Positions 5,971-38,813 of a stretch of 40,159 bases of DNA are shown in pieces. Below the pieces are notes generated by a model, which worked only from the letters and a program-made list of their open reading frames with translations, was not told the DNA's origin and did no database searches. The translations under genes and the position numbers were made by a program. Position 1 is the stretch's first letter; every line of letters begins with the position of its first letter. The DNA is from a virus, in UHGV virus genome UHGV-0014911; one strand, given 5' to 3'.

Positions 5971-6663
5971 TTAATTGTGTCGCTTAAGGGTTTGTGACTG
6001 ACTGATTAAGACCTTTCCAAAGACCATAAACCGATGTTCGTTTTCGCTGGTAATTCCCCATTCGCGGTAAATCTGATTATCAGAAATTACCAGCAGTTTA
6101 TCAGGTATCATTTGCAGTCGTTTGACGTAAATTTTATCATCAAAACCAAATACATATATACCATCCCCATCAAACTGATTGATACTGATATCAACGAAGA
6201 TGAGATCTCCTGGCTCAATGGTTGGACACATACTGTCCCCACGAACGTTGATAACTTTAATGTGATTTGCTGGTCGTCCACCAAACATCGATACAGCATT
6301 ATCAGTTCTGTATTCAATGGCATGAATCACATCAATGACATCACCGCCCTGGATAAGGCCATTTCCCGCACTGGCACTGACATCCAGCATTTCAATACGG
6401 AATACATCCTTCACCTGCGCAACATCCTCACTAATACTGTTTTTACATACAGTATTACTTTTGAGGTCTGAGGTAAAGAGATCAGCAATATCAACACCTA
6501 AGCTCCTGGCAATATTACTCAGGGCTTGTTCAGTGAATTGTTTCTGCTTACCTGTTTCGAGGCGCGAGATATTCGCCGCATCCACTCCTATTGCTTCAGC
6601 GAGATCGGCGATTTTCATGTTCTTCGCCTGGCGAAGTTGTCTGACTCGATTTCCTATGTTCAT
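5971..6663 (-). CDS. CI-like phage repressor (N-terminal XRE-type HTH plus C-terminal S24/LexA-like autopeptidase domain)
   Basis: 230 aa. HTH near the N-terminus (KIADLAEAIGVDAANISRLETGK), Ala-Gly cleavage site (SASAGNG), and Ser/Lys dyad motifs (VRGDSMCPTIEPGDLIFVD; YVKRL). Confidence 0.9.
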   Translation of the reverse strand: MNIGNRVRQLRQAKNMKIADLAEAIGVDAANISRLETGKQKQFTEQALSNIARSLGVDIADLFTSDLKSNTVCKNSISEDVAQVKDVFRIEMLDVSASAGNGLIQGGDVIDVIHAIEYRTDNAVSMFGGRPANHIKVINVRGDSMCPTIEPGDLIFVDISINQFDGDGIYVFGFDDKIYVKRLQMIPDKLLVISDNQIYREWGITSENEHRFMVFGKVLISQSQTLKRHN

Positions 6664-12435: not shown

Positions 12436-13431
12436 GTGACCGTGAGAGCACTACTGACCCCTGAAATTGCCCCGCGTATGGGGATCGTATTGTTCAGGCC
12501 AGGTTCAGAGCTGATGCCCCTGTTTATGCAGGGGCGTGTCCTGCTGGAGCCTGAGCCGGAGCGTTATTCATCTTTCGCCAGTGGTGCCGTTCCGGCGGCA
12601 TCACAACCGCTGGCGGATGATCCTGCCGTTCGGGCCGTGTTCCGCAATGAGGCAGTTATTCGTCGTGCTGGTGGCGTGGAATGTCTTGAAAGCTGGTTAC
12701 TTCGTGAAAAGGGCTGTCAGTGGCCTCATTCCGACTGGCACAGCGAGAACATGACCACAATGCGACACGCTCCGGGCGCAATCCGTCTGTGCTGGCACTG
12801 CGATAACCAGCTGCGCGATCAGTTCACGGAACGGCTGGAATCAATGGCAACGGATAACTGTGCCCGCTGGGTGTTGTCTGTTGTGCGTCGGGATCTCGGT
12901 TTTTATGACAGTCACGTTGTGACAATGCCGGAACTGTGCTGGTGGCTGATTCGTAATGACCTGGCGGATGCCTTACCGGAAAGTGCAGCCCGTAAGGCAC
13001 TGAGATTACCAAAGCCTGTTGTGCCGTCTGTCACCCGGGAAAGTGACCTTGTGCCTTCGGTTCCTGCCACCAGCATCATCCAGGATAAAGCGAAAAAGGT
13101 GCTGGCGCTGAAAGTGGATCCGGAGTCGCCGGAGTCTTTTATGTTACGCCCAAAACGTCGCCGCTGGGTTAATGAAAAGTACACGCGCTGGGTTAAGACA
13201 CAGCCGTGTGCATGTTGTGGAAAGCCCGCTGATGATCCCCACCACCTGATAGGTCACGGTCAGGGTGGAATGGGAACAAAAGCGCATGACCTTTTTGTGT
13301 TGCCTTTGTGCAGAAAGCATCACGACGAGCTGCATGCGGATACCGTGGCATTTGAAGAGAAGTATGGCTCCCAGCTGGAGCTGATATTTCGTTTTATCGA
13401 TCGTGCGCTGGCAATTGGCGTATTGGCGTAA
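12436..13431 (+). CDS. DUF968-type phage protein with C-terminal Cys/His (HNH-like) motif
   Basis: 331 aa, GTG start. C-terminus CACCGKPADDPHHLIGHGQGGMGTKAHDLFVLPLCRKHHDELH. Sits in the nin-region position upstream of Q. Confidence 0.6.
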   Translation: MTVRALLTPEIAPRMGIVLFRPGSELMPLFMQGRVLLEPEPERYSSFASGAVPAASQPLADDPAVRAVFRNEAVIRRAGGVECLESWLLREKGCQWPHSDWHSENMTTMRHAPGAIRLCWHCDNQLRDQFTERLESMATDNCARWVLSVVRRDLGFYDSHVVTMPELCWWLIRNDLADALPESAARKALRLPKPVVPSVTRESDLVPSVPATSIIQDKAKKVLALKVDPESPESFMLRPKRRRWVNEKYTRWVKTQPCACCGKPADDPHHLIGHGQGGMGTKAHDLFVLPLCRKHHDELHADTVAFEEKYGSQLELIFRFIDRALAIGVLA

Positions 13432-13444
13432 GTGGAGAACGAGC

Positions 13445-14197
13445 ATGAACCTTGAAGCCTTACCAAAATATTACTCCCCAAAATCTCCAAAATTGAGCGA
13501 TGACGCACCGGCGACAGGCTCTGGTGGTTTAACAATTACGGATGTAATGGCTGCGCAGGGGATGGTGCAGTCGAAAGCACCGCTTGGGTTTGCCTTATTC
13601 CTGGCAAAAGTTGGTGTTCAGGATCCTCAGTTTGCGATTGAAGGTCTGCTCAATTACGCGATGGCACTGGATAACCCGACATTGAACAAATTGAGTGAAG
13701 AAACCCGGCTACAGATCATTCCTTACCTTGTGAATTTTGCCTTTGCTGATTATTCCAGGTCTGCGGCAAGTAAGGCTCGCTGTGAGCATTGTGCTGGTAC
13801 TGGATTTCATGATGTATTGCGCGAGGTGGTGAAACACTCCAGAAGCGGGGAATCTGTTATCAAGGAAGAGTGGGGGAAGGAACTATGTCAGCATTGTCAT
13901 GGTAAGGGAGAAGTCAGCACAGCGTGCAGAGGGTGTAAGGGTAAAGGTATTGTCCTGGATGAAAAAAGAACCCGGCTTCATGGCACGCCTGTTTATAAGA
14001 TTTGTGGGCGTTGCAATGGAAACCGGTTTAGCCGTTTACCAACCACACTGGCGCGGAATCATGTCCAGAAGCTGGTAGCGGACCTGACTGATTATCAGTG
14101 GTACAAAGGATATGCAAATGTCATTGATAAACTGGTGACAAAGTGCTGGCAGGAGGAATCTTACGCTGAAGCACAATTGAGAAAGGTGACGAGATAA
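13445..14197 (+). CDS. Late-gene antitermination protein Q-like (zinc-binding)
   Basis: Located immediately before the late promoter/terminator and lysis genes, with multiple CxxC pairs (CEHCAGTG ... CQHCHGKG ... CRGCKGKG ... CGRCNG). Start placed at the ATG at 13445 with RBS GGAGA. Confidence 0.6.
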   Translation: MNLEALPKYYSPKSPKLSDDAPATGSGGLTITDVMAAQGMVQSKAPLGFALFLAKVGVQDPQFAIEGLLNYAMALDNPTLNKLSEETRLQIIPYLVNFAFADYSRSAASKARCEHCAGTGFHDVLREVVKHSRSGESVIKEEWGKELCQHCHGKGEVSTACRGCKGKGIVLDEKRTRLHGTPVYKICGRCNGNRFSRLPTTLARNHVQKLVADLTDYQWYKGYANVIDKLVTKCWQEESYAEAQLRKVTR

Positions 14198-28594: not shown

Positions 28595-28743
28595 CGGCTG
28601 AATACCTCACTGATCGCTTCTTTGACTGCGCCAGCTACTGGCGCATTAATCCTTTCGAATTGCTGAATATGCCGATCAGTGAAATTCCCTTACTGGTCAG
28701 TCAGGCAAACAGGATAGAGCAGGAGAAACGCACACATGGCTGA
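28325..28743 (+). CDS. Tail assembly chaperone, predicted -1 frameshift fusion product
   Basis: Slippage at T-TTT-TTC (28576-28582) into the -1 frame joins ...AAWLVAGFF to PPGLTAEYLTDRFFDCASYWRINPFELLNMPISEIPLLVSQANRIEQEKRTHG, ending at 28743 and overlapping the tape measure start. Confidence 0.6.
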
Positions 28744-30568
28744 ATTTGAGCTTAAGGCGTTGATCACCGGTGTCGACAGGCTTTCTCCCGCGCTGTCGAA
28801 AATGCAAAAGAAAATCCGGGGATTTAAACGCCAGGCGGAAGAAGCGTCACAGGGTGGGCTGGCGCTTGGTGGCGGACTGGCAGCGGGTCTGACGCTTTCC
28901 CTGAAATCTTATGCCGATCAGGAAAACGCCGCCACCGGGCTGAAAGTCGCCATGATGGATGCGAACGGCGAGGTTGGAAAGAGCTTTCAGGACATCAATA
29001 AACTGGCTATTGGCCTGGGTAACCAGCTACCCGGTACAACGGCTGATTTCCAGAACATGATGCAGATGCTGGTGCGTCAGGGGATCCCGGCAGAAAACAT
29101 TCTGGGTTGTGTGGGTAAAGCGACAGCTTATCTTGCGGTACAACTGAAAAAAACACCGGAAGCGGCTGCCGAGTTTGCCGCAAAGATGCAGGATGCTACC
29201 GGAACGGCGTCAGAAGACATGATGGGGCTGTTCGACACTATCCAGAAGGCGTTTTATCTGGGCGTTGACGATACCAACATGTTGTCCTTCTTCACTAAAA
29301 CCAGTTCTGTTCTGAAGATGGTGAACAAGGATGGTCTTCAGGCTGCACAGAGCCTTGCCCCCATCAGCGTCATGATGGATCAGATGGGGATGAACGGGGA
29401 GGCGGCAGGTAATGCCCTGCGAAAAGTTATCCAGTCAGGATTAAGTGTTAAGAAAATCAGGGACGTCAATAAAGTCATGGCCCGCCAGAAACTCGGGGTA
29501 CAGCTCGATTTTACTGACGGCAAAGGAAGTTTTGGCGGTCTTGATAACATGTTTAAGCAACTGGCAAAGTTGCGAAAACTGACTGACGTTAAGCGAACTA
29601 ATGTACTTAAGGCAATATTTGGTGATGATGCCGAAACCATTCAGGTGGTCAATGCGCTGATCGATAAAGGAAAGGATGGTTACGATCAGATCCAGCAGAA
29701 GATGAATAAACAGGCCAGCCTGAATAAACGTGTTCAGGCACAGCTTGGTACGTTGTCCAACCTGTGGGAGGCAATGACGGGGACCGCAACTAACGGCCTT
29801 GCAGCTATTGGCGGCGCATTTTCTGGTGACGCTAAAAATATCACGCAATGGCTGGGGGAGTTGGGGGAGAAATTCACGAAGTTTGCGGATCAAAATCCCC
29901 GGGTTATTCGCGGCGTCGTCGGGCTTGCTGCCGGTCTTGCGATTCTGAAACTGGGATTGATGGGCGTGGGCAGTGCCATCAGTATCGTCAGCAGGATCAT
30001 GTCGATGACGCCGATTGGCATGATTGCGACGGCGATTGCCCTGGCTGCGGGATTAATTATCACTAACTGGGATGTTGTTGGACCTTATTTCAAGAAGCTC
30101 TGGGAAACCATTGGTCCTTATTTTGAGGTTGGCTGGGAACTCCTTAAGAAAGTTTTTGCCTGGTCGCCGCTGGGGATGGTGATCAATAACTGGGGACCGG
30201 TTGTTAAGTGGTTTCAGGATATGTGGGACAAGCTGAAGCCAATTATTGAGTGGTTTACTGACAGTTCCGGTGACACGGTCGATGCCATTAACTCTGCGCA
30301 GTGGGGCGCAGGTGCCTATGATGCTTATGGGACGGGAATACCGGCGTGGGGATACACACCTTATCCGGCGGTGGATCCGGCTCAGTCAAACAACGCCTCC
30401 GGTGCCACAGGTCCGAATCCCTTCATGATTAACAAAGCTTCTGCGCCAAAAGTTGATGGTGAGATCAAGGTATCTTTTGTGAATATGCCACCAGGTATGC
30501 GGGTTATGGAAACGCGATCCAGCGGTATTGATGTCAGCCATGATGTTGGCTATACGCGGTTCAGGTAG
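28736..30568 (+). CDS. Tail tape measure protein
   Basis: 610 aa, long helical Ala/Gly/Met-rich protein with a hydrophobic segment, placed after the frameshifted chaperone. Confidence 0.9.
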   Translation: MAEFELKALITGVDRLSPALSKMQKKIRGFKRQAEEASQGGLALGGGLAAGLTLSLKSYADQENAATGLKVAMMDANGEVGKSFQDINKLAIGLGNQLPGTTADFQNMMQMLVRQGIPAENILGCVGKATAYLAVQLKKTPEAAAEFAAKMQDATGTASEDMMGLFDTIQKAFYLGVDDTNMLSFFTKTSSVLKMVNKDGLQAAQSLAPISVMMDQMGMNGEAAGNALRKVIQSGLSVKKIRDVNKVMARQKLGVQLDFTDGKGSFGGLDNMFKQLAKLRKLTDVKRTNVLKAIFGDDAETIQVVNALIDKGKDGYDQIQQKMNKQASLNKRVQAQLGTLSNLWEAMTGTATNGLAAIGGAFSGDAKNITQWLGELGEKFTKFADQNPRVIRGVVGLAAGLAILKLGLMGVGSAISIVSRIMSMTPIGMIATAIALAAGLIITNWDVVGPYFKKLWETIGPYFEVGWELLKKVFAWSPLGMVINNWGPVVKWFQDMWDKLKPIIEWFTDSSGDTVDAINSAQWGAGAYDAYGTGIPAWGYTPYPAVDPAQSNNASGATGPNPFMINKASAPKVDGEIKVSFVNMPPGMRVMETRSSGIDVSHDVGYTRFR

Positions 30569-30667
30569 TGTACAAAATGATTAATGTGTTTTTGTCTGGC
30601 ATAATTTGGGTTTTCAACTTTAAGTAGTTAATATAATCACTCCTTACAAATGATTGAAGGGATGATT

Positions 30668-31162
30668 ATGCGTATCTTTGTGTTTTTTATATCTGCACTT
30701 TTATCTTTTAACTTGGCAGCGGAAGAGTGTAAGTTCAGCTTTAATGAGTCAGAATTAATCTCTTCTATAGGTATTGCACCAGTTAAGCAAGAGATAGTAA
30801 AGGATGAAGGAATAACTAAGCGTCAATATGAATTCAGGAGAGAATTGTCTTTTGAAGAAATGCTTGGCGATGATGCTGATGAAAAATATGAGCCGCAGTT
30901 TTATATATCTGTTTATAATCCATCATGTCCACAAAAGGTTATTATTTGGTTTTTCAAAGACAATAAAAACACACAAGCTTTAAGTAATGAGGTCCTTGCT
31001 GGTAGAGCATTCAAGTATTTAACTGGTGTTAATGAAAGTATTTTTGAAAATAAAATGAAAAAGTTTTCAAAGGTACAGTCATTTGAATCCTTTGATGAAA
31101 GGACGGACTCTAAATTTATAAAGAGTGGTAATGTTTATTCCATTGATGTTCAACTCAGATAG
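30668..31162 (+). CDS. Secreted hypothetical protein encoded by an AT-rich moron inside the tail operon
   Basis: Start placed at the ATG at 30668. N-terminal signal peptide MRIFVFFISALLSFNLAAEE, AT-rich DNA, TATAAT box about 30 bp upstream, hairpin plus T run downstream (about 31184-31245). Confidence 0.6.
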   Translation: MRIFVFFISALLSFNLAAEECKFSFNESELISSIGIAPVKQEIVKDEGITKRQYEFRRELSFEEMLGDDADEKYEPQFYISVYNPSCPQKVIIWFFKDNKNTQALSNEVLAGRAFKYLTGVNESIFENKMKKFSKVQSFESFDERTDSKFIKSGNVYSIDVQLR

Positions 31163-31252
31163 TAATTGAAAATATTAGAACCCCGCTACATCTTCTGCGA
31201 TGTAAATAACTGACAAAGCAGATTTGGCGGGTTTTTTGTATCCGGAGTTTAT

Positions 31253-32581
31253 ATGACGTGGAAAGACAGGCTTCAGGATGCGTCATTTCGCGGCGTACCG
31301 TTTAAGGTTGAAGAAGAAAGTGCGGGAACCGGTCGCCGTGTGGAAACACACGAATATCCGAACCGCGACAAGCCCTATACCGAAGATCTGGGAAAAGTCA
31401 CTTTCCGCCCGTCCATCACAGCTTATGTGGTGGGAGATGACTGCTTTGACCAGCGCGATCGCCTGATTGACGCGCTGAATAAACCCGGTCCCGGCACGCT
31501 TGTCCACCCGACATATGGTGAGCTGAAAGTCTGTGTTGACGGGGAAGTTCGGGTCAGCACATCGAAGAGTGAAGGGCGTATTGTCCGCTTTGACCTGAAG
31601 TTTGTCGAAGCAGGAGAACTCTCTTACCCCACATCAGGTGCGGCGACGGCGCAGACGCTGATGTCATCCTGTTCTGCACTGGATGACTGCATCAGTGACA
31701 GCTTCAGCGGTTTCAGTATCGATGGTGTGGCGGATTTCGTGCAGAACGACGTTATCGGTAATGCCAGCATAATGCTGGGGTATGTTTCTGATGCGATGAA
31801 AGTGGTGGATTCTGCCGTATCGGATGCCGCCAGGCTGTTGCAGGGGGATATCTCGGTACTTCTGCCGCCGCCATCGTCAGGCAAAAATTTCGTTGAGCAG
31901 GTGCAGAAAATGTGGCGTACCGGGAAACGCCTTTATGGTAACGCCAGCGACCTGGTCACCATGATCAAAACGCTTTCCGGTGTCAGCCTCGGCAGCGATC
32001 TGCAACCGCGCGGCGTCTGGAAAACGGACAGTAAAACCACCGCCACGGCGACGCAGCAGCGTAACGTGGTTGCCAGCACCCTTCGTACGACCGCAATCAG
32101 CGAAGCGGCGTATGCCGTCACCCGATTGCCTGCGCCAACAACTTCCGCGGTGATGCAGAATGCCGCAGTGGGGCAGGCAACAACACCCGTGCAGAGCACT
32201 GGCTGGCCTTCCGTCACGCATCCGGCACTGAACAATGCACCGGCGGTGAAAAACACGGTTGACCTGCCGACGTGGGAAGAACTGACCGACATTCGCGACA
32301 CACTGAATACGGCAATTGATAAGGAGTTGTCCCGTACAACCAGCGATGCGCTGTTTCTGGCGCTGCGCCGGGTGAAAGCAGATCTGAATGCGGATATCAA
32401 CACGCGCCTTGAACAGTCTGCACGGATCATTCAGCGCACACCGGATGAGGTTTTACCCGCGCTGGTGCTGGCGGCGACCTGGTTTGATAACGCGGCGCGT
32501 GACGCGGACATTATCCGGCGTAATGCCATTACGCATCCCGGCTTTGTGCCGGTGATCCCTCTGAAGGTGCCAGTGCAATGA
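31253..32581 (+). CDS. DNA circularisation protein (Mu gpN-like)
   Basis: 442 aa, N-terminal motif WKDRLQDASFRGVPFKVEEES ... HEYPNRDKPYTEDLG, immediately after the tape measure/moron. Confidence 0.8.
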   Translation: MTWKDRLQDASFRGVPFKVEEESAGTGRRVETHEYPNRDKPYTEDLGKVTFRPSITAYVVGDDCFDQRDRLIDALNKPGPGTLVHPTYGELKVCVDGEVRVSTSKSEGRIVRFDLKFVEAGELSYPTSGAATAQTLMSSCSALDDCISDSFSGFSIDGVADFVQNDVIGNASIMLGYVSDAMKVVDSAVSDAARLLQGDISVLLPPPSSGKNFVEQVQKMWRTGKRLYGNASDLVTMIKTLSGVSLGSDLQPRGVWKTDSKTTATATQQRNVVASTLRTTAISEAAYAVTRLPAPTTSAVMQNAAVGQATTPVQSTGWPSVTHPALNNAPAVKNTVDLPTWEELTDIRDTLNTAIDKELSRTTSDALFLALRRVKADLNADINTRLEQSARIIQRTPDEVLPALVLAATWFDNAARDADIIRRNAITHPGFVPVIPLKVPVQ

Positions 32582-37449: not shown

Positions 37450-37661
37450 ATGCGTTTGGCCTGTCAATATGCATTAAAATTGATGTAGTACAGATAGTGT
37501 GAGGGACAACCCCTTATTTAGTGATTTTCTTCTTCCCTACACGATTGTGTAGGGATAGAGGTTTAATAAAAGCCGGAACCGTTAATTATTGTCGACGCTC
37601 AAATTGGTTATGTAACTTAATCTATTGTGTTGTTTTTTTTTGAACTTAATCCAATTAGATT

Positions 37662-38745
37662 CTATAATTTTGATAGTGGTGACGGTCTTTTTTTTATCAG
37701 CTTGGTTAAATTTCTATATGCAATTTCAGATCTTAACCCACTAACTCCAGTATAAGATGTCATTGTTTTTCTTAACTTATTATTGAAGTGTGGAGATTGA
37801 TATTTGCGTAGAACATCCATAATGTCTTTTATATCACAGGAGTCAGCCACTATATCAAAATCACGATATACATTACCATTTTGTTCAGGAATAATAATGG
37901 TTGGTTTGTACGCTTCTATAGACTCAAGTGCAGCAGTACTTCCTGATGTTAGGACAATATCAGCTTCACTTAGTGCCTCGATGAAAGTTTTGTTTTTGTC
38001 AGATAATTTAACGCTATTGTCTAATAGGGGTGAATATATATCAATGTGTTCTGGATGTGGTCGTAATATAACGTTATAACTCTTCTGTTGTAAACATTTT
38101 ACAATATCTCTAACTATTTTAGTTGGTACTGTACTTTGTAGGGCAAAAAGAAATGATAATTGTCCTGTTTTAATTTTTATTTCTATTTCTCTTGCTGTTG
38201 TGTTATAATGCTGTGCTGTGCTGTGCTGTGCTGTGCTGTGCTGTGCTGTTATCTAGTTTTGGAAGTCCAAGACTTATTACCCTATTTCTAAATTTTTCGT
38301 TGAATTTATTAATAAAAGCCTCGCCAAACACACCGAAGTAATCAAAGCAATCAAAGTTATTCTCATATCCTTCCCAGTTTTGATAAAATCCATGTTGAAG
38401 CCCAATGAAAATTGGACTTTTATAACTGTTATTCATGGCTTTCTTTAAATCTAATTCCGGACCTGCAACACAACTGGTCATCAAAACAGCATCATAATTA
38501 ACTGCATTTTTTGTAAAATCTAAAAGAACCTCTTCTTTTGTTCTGTTGACAAAATTAAAATTAGAATCAATTTTATCTACCAAAAGAATGTTTTCTTTAA
38601 TTTCCAGTAGTTTTCTGTGATTTGGATCGGATATTCTAGGGAAGAATATATAGTCACATATTCCTCCGTTCTTACGGATTTCATAAACTAAGGGAAGCCA
38701 GTTTTCTAAACATCTGTAAGTAAACGCAGTAAATAATATTCGCAT
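37662..38745 (-). pseudogene. AT-rich transferase-like cargo gene split into two reading frames at a pentanucleotide repeat (currently frameshifted; candidate phase-variable gene)
   Basis: The N-terminal segment (ATG at 38745, MRILFTAF...) runs into the repeat and stops at 38203. A second frame is open with no stop and no start codon from 38252 to 37662, spanning the repeat, and encodes ...ILRPHPEH ... IVLTSGSTAALESIEAYKPTIIIPE... The two frames meet exactly at the repeat. Confidence 0.7.
38210..38249. repeat. Perfect pentanucleotide microsatellite (GCTGT)x8 inside the coding sequence
   Basis: Eight uninterrupted GCTGT units on the plus strand, encoding (STAQH)n on the minus strand, located exactly where the frame breaks. 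Confidence 0.95.
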
Positions 38746-38784
38746 TGTTGTATGTTGTCCAATTGATAATAATGCATTCTTCTG

Positions 38785-38813
38785 ATTGTACAATGGTTTG
38801 TTGTTTGTTACAA
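38785..38813 (-). promoter_or_regulatory. Candidate sigma-70 promoter of the transferase-like gene (TTGTAA, 17-bp spacer, TACAAT)
   Basis: Read on the minus strand, about 40 nt upstream of the ATG at 38745; the -10 overlaps the palindrome ATTGTACAAT. Confidence 0.4.

Follow-up and report, generated by a model that had tools for sequence, protein, structure and literature searches.

A variable slot between the tape-measure and DNA-circularisation genes of SfV-like prophages and its predicted periplasmic cargo protein

UHGV virus genome UHGV-0014911, the 40,159-nt stretch analysed here (hereafter the window), is a lambdoid prophage of the SfV/SfI/SfII kind with a Mu-type contractile tail. Between its tail tape-measure gene (28736-30568, + strand; PF10145 PhageMin_Tail, 1.6e-26) and its Mu N-type DNA-circularisation gene, hereafter N (31253-32581, + strand; PF07157 DNA_circ_N, 2.9e-34), lies a 684-nt block of 31-36% guanine plus cytosine (GC), against 51-62% on both sides, that holds one sizeable open reading frame (ORF; 30650/30668-31162, + strand), hereafter the slot gene. 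The product, a member of PHROG 8976, is predicted from its sequence to be a genuine Sec-exported periplasmic protein of 146 residues, and its gene is best explained as one of several interchangeable cargos at the tape-measure/N junction of SfV-like Mu-type tails. A moron has been defined (Juhala/Hendrix definition, PMC3594210) as extra DNA that is absent from relatives, deviates in composition, has its own promoter and terminator and is expressed from the prophage; the slot gene shows the presence/absence among relatives and the deviant base composition of this definition, and can be classed as an accessory gene of moron type from an uncharacterised family. An initial annotation of the window had listed here an AT-rich gene, a signal peptide, a TATAAT box and a hairpin with a T run, and each of these elements is where it was placed; what it described, an AT-rich accessory gene within the tail operon that is not universal and whose product is exported, was borne out, including the position between tape-measure and circularisation genes.

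The slot gene and its product

The slot gene is most probably translated from the ATG at 30668 (30668-31162, + strand; 164 amino acids beginning MRIFV), a start preferred because it is preceded at a distance of 5 nt by a Shine-Dalgarno-like AAGGGA (30657-30662, + strand), because the homologues likewise begin with M-R, and because the Prokaryotic Genome Annotation Pipeline (PGAP) calls the same start in its entry for the protein (WP_042195689.1, "hypothetical protein"). The AGGGA of the Shine-Dalgarno-like site is invariant in an alignment of four homologous loci. The ORF has a GC content of 32.3%, against 51.3% in the tape-measure gene and 56.5% in N (flanks 51-59%). It is not a chance ORF, because the same ORF with the same flanks recurs in 84-86 complete Escherichia coli genomes and a diverged form is found in other genera. 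Two E. coli-type alleles differ by 12 synonymous and 9 non-synonymous codons (crude ratio of non-synonymous to synonymous rates, dN/dS, ~0.24), and nine homologues of equal length (55-94% identical) share 49 invariant columns. These comparisons establish the slot gene as a real gene whose codon changes are those of purifying selection.

The signal peptide MRIFVFFISALLSFNLAA (30668-30721, + strand) consists of M-R followed by a 14-residue hydrophobic core and an alanine at position -1, with predicted signal peptidase I cleavage after A18 (LAA/EEC); the n-region is positive and the core has a Kyte-Doolittle 12-residue mean of 2.68. This assignment is a rule-based check of the n-region, the h-region and residues -3 and -1, not the output of a dedicated predictor. 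By the same rules an n/h/c pattern with an M-R or M-K start and A at -1 is present in 13 of 13 phage-borne family members, the sequences of which differ (12-residue means of 2.1-3.2), and the signal peptide that had been noticed from the letters alone was thereby confirmed as a prediction. At MRIFVFFISALLSFNLAA/EE the residue at -3 is L and that at -1 is A; homologues have A at -1 and V, A, S or I at -3. The mature domain of 146 residues is encoded, with the stop codon, at 30722-31162 (+ strand) and contains C21 and C87. C87 is invariant, and C21, three residues after the A at -1, is present in most family members and absent from the one non-phage copy. Such a conserved cysteine pair together with the signal pattern is what would be expected of a disulfide-bonded periplasmic protein. 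The product was also considered as a lipoprotein and rejected as such: there is no lipobox ([LVI][ASTVI][GAS]C), and the conserved cysteine follows A-E-E/Q, being preceded directly by E or Q.

The slot protein matches PHROG 8976 over the full profile (E = 1.8e-104, residues 1-164 on positions 1-164 of 164), a family annotated as of unknown function, and has no match in Pfam, NCBIfam or PADLOC scans. A profile search of 1.84 billion representative proteins gave 13 matches, of which one, a 1,766-residue eukaryote-like repeat protein, was spurious, its weak matches having been summed over 13 repeats; by this search the family is known in Enterobacterales only. Among 185,579 species-representative genomes two carry the slot gene (Kluyvera sichuanensis and an Atlantibacter metagenome-assembled genome, MAG). 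It is present in 86 of 5,426 complete E. coli genomes (~1.6%), always on the chromosome, and the carriers come from poultry, livestock and human sources, in which its presence is variable. The AlphaFold2 model is an alpha/beta fold (predicted local distance difference test, pLDDT, 87.1; predicted template modelling score, pTM, 0.78) with low confidence in the signal peptide only. A structure-based homology search had been suggested as a check in the initial annotation; it yielded no relative in the PDB, either by Foldseek with the model (nothing at E <= 0.001) or by a profile search of PDB sequences with the family (nothing meaningful), and a single match in BFVD, with a phage protein from a metagenome that bears the label "ABC transporter periplasmic binding protein" (TM-score ~0.6, 15% identity). 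That label is probably unreliable and uninformative as to function. No sequence or structural homology of the slot protein to characterised superinfection-exclusion or anti-phage defence families was found.

A variable junction with envelope-biased cargo

The tape-measure/N junction was identified in 1,097 E. coli genomes, and the slot gene stands there in 84. Relatives that lack it, a comparison proposed in the initial annotation, include SfV, SfI and SfII, each of which has a 60-nt spacer at the junction. The junction was classified in 77 IMG/VR loci encoding an N protein with 98% or more identity to that of the window: the slot is empty in 31 and occupied in 46, by the slot gene in 19 (one copy truncated) and by unrelated, mostly membrane-anchored cargo in 27, with a protein of 176 residues with an N-terminal membrane anchor (PHROG 5485) in 24, a membrane-anchored OB-fold protein encoded on the opposite strand in three, and a bacterial PH-domain (bPH_1) protein (PHROG 7115) in one. 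The slot protein is dispensable for the virion, because SfV, SfI and SfII do without the gene and 31 of the 77 near-identical tails are empty. The earlier premise that structural operons are normally uninterrupted was too strong in view of this occupancy, and morons in tail operons are classic (HK97 gene 15, PMC3594210).

E. coli genomes and phage vB_EcoM-720R4 supplied further cargos, a lipoprotein of 225 residues (PHROG 1353) and a signal-peptide protein of 162 residues (PHROG 5586). Altogether there are at least six unrelated alternative cargo families at the junction (L011 861-1391; L012 802-1248, minus strand; L015 800-1477; L003 2381-2869; L060 of IMG/VR; L014 1676-1978), and five of six begin with an export or anchor signal. 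The possibility that the cargos are diverged versions of one family was rejected, hhalign giving a probability below 3% for the three tested. The OB-fold cargo, a tRNA_anti-like domain with an N-terminal anchor, belongs to PHROG 8545, which is annotated "superinfection exclusion Sie-like" (2.8e-49). PADLOC detected none of the cargo families scanned, among which the bPH_1 cargo was not included. A slot between the tape-measure and DNA-circularisation genes of SfV-like tails was not found described in the literature, nor was anything specific on phage SKA5 or the OB-fold cargo.

A short spacer (30569-30592, + strand) is common to the window and the empty junctions, and by-eye comparison of the window TGTACAAAATGATTAATGTGTT with the SfII TGAAAAATTAATCTGTT has the two part at ~30592, the left edge of the presence/absence difference. 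The right wall begins with the ribosome-binding site GGAG of N (31244-31247, + strand), and GGAGTTTAT-ATG is kept at window-type junctions regardless of cargo; L003 and L104 deviate. When cargo types are compared, ~29 of the last 300 nt of the tape-measure gene (30270-30568) differ, and only 7-11 in 300 nt do so farther from the slot, a comparison made among occupied loci only, as an ungapped alignment of empty loci with the window is invalidated by a 3-nt indel. This divergence beside the slot suggests, at the level of sequence comparison, that cassettes are exchanged by homologous recombination with breakpoints within the 3' end of the tape-measure gene.

Signs of cargo decay were also seen at the junction. 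One IMG/VR copy of the slot gene (L076) has been cut to a remnant of 100 residues, and in one E. coli genome the bPH_1 cargo (L014 937-1634) is split by an IS1 insertion.

Long residence of the slot gene in one tail type

All phage-borne homologues of the slot gene that can be placed sit in the same tape-measure/N slot. Identity to the window protein is 61% in a metagenomic contig, 60% in Kluyvera, 58% in Atlantibacter, 42% in Pantoea phage AH07, 36% in Yersinia ruckeri and 26% in a second metagenomic contig (L104). At 60% identity of the slot protein, the tape measure and N stand at 79% and 69%, respectively; at 36% they stand at 58% and 57%, and at 26% at 57% and 43%. In these alignments, then, the slot gene co-diverges with the tail module, somewhat faster than its flanks. 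The GC content of the homologues (0.32-0.40) is below that of the flanks everywhere, and low GC is therefore a maintained trait of the gene and not a sign of recent arrival. The initial description of an insertion, if taken to mean a recent one-off event, does not agree with homologues at 60%, 42%, 36% and 26% identity in a single slot, co-diverging with the tail genes.

The sole non-phage homologue (L102 5001-5471, 35% identical) is located just downstream of a pertactin-type autotransporter gene, has a GC content of 37% against 52-59%, and is without the signal peptide and the first conserved cysteine. It may be a stranded remnant.

A hairpin that belongs to the junction

Directly before N the window contains a terminator or attenuator hairpin (CCCGCTA...TGGCGGG; 31182-31237, + strand) with its stem at 31182-31188/31225-31231 and T6 at 31232-31237. 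The predicted energy is -21.9 kcal/mol (z = -2.4), and 1 of 200 shuffled sequences was as good. The loop, usually TTCG, has grown to 36 nt and contains a small stem of its own in the window and its E. coli alleles, and a simple terminator scan missed the hairpin because of this unusual loop length. The corresponding sequence is CCCGC-TTCG-GCGGG-T7 in relatives and CCCAC-TCCG-GTGGG-AT6 at empty junctions. The stems show compensatory changes (CCCGC/GCGGG, CCCAC/GTGGG, GGCCACC/GGTGGCC), and a GC-rich hairpin with a T run stands directly before the ribosome-binding site of N in 11 of 12 junction types, the empty one of SfII/SfV among them, with an equivalent hairpin after every other + strand cargo (compare L004 8519-8540; L008 8513-8534; L098 4017-4039; L001 2093-2118). 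No RNA family was found by Rfam in 30400-31400.

Since the hairpin is present at empty junctions, it is a fixture of the junction and not of the slot gene. The initial annotation was thus right that a terminator-like hairpin and T run are there, and wrong in assigning them to the insert. Plausibly, the hairpin attenuates transcription between the sheath, tube and tape-measure genes, which are needed abundantly, and the baseplate genes, and polymerase modified by Q would read through it, by analogy with lambdoid phages. The window encodes a Q-type antiterminator (13403-14197, + strand; PF03589 Antiterm, 1.4e-53).

Expression of the slot gene

The TATAAT noted in the initial annotation as a promoter box exists as an exact copy at 30632-30637, and it does not stand up as a -10 element: no -35 element lies 16-18 nt upstream, and the conserved hexamer is the overlapping TAATAT that starts 3 nt earlier. 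A TATAAT alone is not above chance in DNA of 32% GC, because a consensus scan of 30000-31800 finds no + strand promoter and shuffled sequences give 3.4 +/- 1.9 sites. What may be a weak sigma-70 promoter (30606-30637, + strand) is formed by TTGGGT (30606-30611), a 17-nt spacer and TAATAT (30629-30634); it matches 7 of 12 consensus positions, below the threshold of the scan. Alignment with the spacers of three homologous loci gives TTGGG[G/A]-17-TACTAT in L004 and L098 and TTGTTA-18-TAAGAT in the Atlantibacter locus (L008), the T, A, A and T of the -10 hexamer being invariant in all four.

The E. coli, Kluyvera and Atlantibacter lineages have an AT-rich spacer of 72-100 nt upstream of the slot gene. 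Only 12-16 nt separate the gene from the stop codon of the tape-measure gene in Yersinia, Pantoea phage AH07 and L104; this leaves no room for a promoter, so that there the gene can be transcribed only as part of the tail operon. From this arrangement late expression of the slot gene can safely be predicted; in the E. coli lineage the gene may also have a promoter of its own and be expressed while the prophage is repressed.

Possible functions

The function favoured here, tentatively and by analogy, is that of a periplasmic superinfection-exclusion protein that blocks phage entry. During the lytic cycle the slot gene would be transcribed with the tail genes by Q-antiterminated polymerase that ignores the downstream hairpin. 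In the E. coli lineage it may in addition be expressed from the prophage under repression, by way of the putative weak promoter within the 100 nt of spacer upstream; in that state the hairpin would insulate the baseplate genes. The exported protein would intercept the tail-tip proteins (tape measure, N) of incoming related phages in the periplasm and block entry of their DNA, resulting in superinfection exclusion; because its gene is linked to those for the tape measure and N, the excluder would stay paired with its cognate tail type. An entry blocker is preferred because the protein is exported to the compartment that the tape measure and N cross, because its gene is linked to theirs, co-diverges with them and evolves fast, because its slot also houses other small envelope proteins, and because HK97 gp15 provides a precedent. 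A protein exported from the cytoplasm cannot join the tail assembly that takes place there.

Several points weigh against exclusion. The function is drawn from position, localisation and analogy only; the promoter evidence is weak, so that expression in lysogens is no more than possible; the "Sie-like" label of PHROG 8545 is an annotation, not a tested function; and in distant relatives the gene appears to be purely late-expressed, which fits an excluder acting in the lytic phase and weakens the case for protection by the prophage. A wider proposal, that the junction is a dedicated exchangeable cassette site for envelope entry blockers and that PHROG 8976 is a new periplasmic-excluder fold which recognises, and co-evolves with, the linked cognate tape measure and N, is doubtful.

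The slot protein might instead be a lysogenic-conversion factor directed at the host, changing its envelope physiology, stress tolerance, colonisation or virulence, and be unconnected with other phages. Export, the AT-rich gene and its variable presence among E. coli from poultry, livestock and humans would agree with such a role, and the morons Lom and Bor of lambda act in this way (PMC3594210). A gene confined to one slot of one tail type, with wide co-divergence with the tape-measure and N genes, would be unexpected for cargo that serves the host. Genes of that kind tend to travel between phage types and between sites on the chromosome. Members of the family are also known from a plant-leaf Pantoea phage and from Yersinia ruckeri, so that no common host niche is apparent, and no resemblance to a known virulence factor emerged. 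Conversion in this sense is rather unlikely, and the initial suggestion of a lysogenic-conversion candidate can be kept in part: an exported protein absent from SfV, SfI and SfII is a reasonable candidate for an envelope-acting prophage function, and nothing points to virulence.

A role in the phage's own lytic cycle is likewise unlikely. Production would then be confined to the time when the tail genes are expressed, with none from the prophage, and the protein would reach the periplasm of the infected cell, where it might stop secondary infection or lysis from without at a late stage, or modulate the envelope before lysis. The orientation of the gene with the late operon, its close spacing (12-16 nt) from the end of the tape-measure gene in Yersinia, Pantoea AH07 and L104, the lack of a consensus promoter in the scan of 30000-31800 and the encoded Q antiterminator all suit such a helper; many near-identical phages dispense with the gene, however, and a 72-100-nt spacer with a positionally conserved -35/-10-like pair would be needless if the operon alone drove its expression. 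A late helper also overlaps with the exclusion reading, from which it differs mainly in timing.

It is improbable that the insert is a recent, self-contained moron (promoter, gene and terminator) brought in from an AT-rich donor by illegitimate recombination. This was suggested by a GC content of 32% against ~55% in the flanks, by the alternation of presence and absence among flanks that are 95-99% identical, and by the TATAAT box and hairpin on either side of the gene; it is largely refuted by the long residence at one position of homologues as distant as 26% identity, all at 0.32-0.40 GC. In addition, the hairpin stands at empty junctions too, the raised divergence at the 3' end of the tape-measure gene (last 300 nt) suggests that cassettes are swapped through homologous recombination in the flanking genes, and no donor is evident, since the only non-phage homologue is without a signal peptide.

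That the ORF is non-functional or a decaying remnant can practically be dismissed: the truncated L076 copy, the IS1 insertion in another cargo type and the lack of a known function are outweighed by conservation of length, signal peptide, cysteines and 49 residues across genera, by synonymous changes in excess of the neutral prediction, and by a confidently predicted fold.

Relation to known systems

HK97 gene 15 is a moron beside the tape-measure gene, and its product gp15 resides in the envelope and prevents injection of the genome in a manner that depends on the tail (Juhala et al. 2000; Cumby et al. 2012; PMC3594210). Like the slot gene, it is small, lies in the tail operon, adjoins the tape-measure gene, deviates in composition, is absent from close relatives and encodes an envelope product; the dependence of gp15 exclusion on the tail region of the incoming phage is the mechanism proposed here for the slot protein. 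Unlike the slot protein, a soluble alpha/beta protein of 146 residues with a cleavable signal peptide encoded downstream of the tape-measure gene, gp15 is a small inner-membrane protein related to YebO and is encoded upstream of it. The two have no similarity of sequence or fold, and expression from the prophage has been demonstrated for gp15 and is only a possibility for the slot gene.

Other exported phage proteins that interfere with entry offer a broader parallel. T4 Spackle is a periplasmic inhibitor of tail lysozyme, and Llp of T5 and Cor of lambdoid phages are receptor-blocking lipoproteins. These three and Ltp share with the slot protein a phage origin, an N-terminal signal for passage across the inner membrane, small size, fast evolution and non-essentiality; all four work outside the cytoplasm, where they target the receptor or the entry apparatus of an incoming phage, an action that for the slot protein is proposed. 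Ltp, from Streptococcus phage TP-J34, is a lipoprotein acting on the tape measure (PMC3952083).

P2-like phages have variable moron positions (PMC3573123), which resemble the tape-measure/N slot in being fixed intergenic sites between structural genes that receive unrelated, compositionally deviant cargos. In contrast to these positions and to phage hotspots, the slot has cargo strongly biased to envelope proteins and not cytoplasmic defence enzymes.

The gene itself will not surprise phage biologists; a hypervariable, envelope-biased slot and the long fidelity of one family to it are the more useful observations. At least six unrelated envelope proteins on near-identical tails amount to a natural swap experiment for single-gene determinants of phage resistance that defence finders miss. 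Should the slot protein be an entry blocker, the few exported exclusion proteins known would be joined by one with a new periplasmic fold, and it would provide a simple system for studying the passage of the tape measure and N of Mu-type tails through the periplasm; otherwise it would be one more uncharacterised prophage accessory gene, carried by the ~1.6% of complete E. coli genomes given above.

Prophage setting and other AT-rich islands

Over the 1.8 kb tested (30000-31800), a prophage of E. coli strain 181.1 matches the window at 99.6% identity, and Escherichia phage SKA5 does so at 96%. Other genes of the window encode an integrase (386-1621) and a CI-like repressor (5971-6663, minus strand); homology with the E. 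coli 181.1 locus further assigns to it head genes of HK97 type, together with genes for sheath, tube and baseplate that follow the order of Mu. The 181.1 counterpart of the tape-measure gene carries the PGAP name "phage tail tape measure protein".

A second insertion point within the same tail module is located at the N/P junction of the Atlantibacter MAG (L008 9980-11778), where two additional ORFs (506 and 93 amino acids, no Pfam match) lie between N and the baseplate hub gene P. The window itself contains two further AT-rich islands. One, directly after the integrase gene (1780-2913, + strand; 30-36% GC), encodes a protein of 377 residues that matches PHROG 7779 (function unknown), has no Pfam or PADLOC match and is a further candidate cargo. 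The other (37600-38800, 31-33% GC) is downstream of the tail-fibre assembly gene and includes an ORF of 196 amino acids (38203-38793, minus strand) with no match in Pfam, PHROGs or PADLOC.
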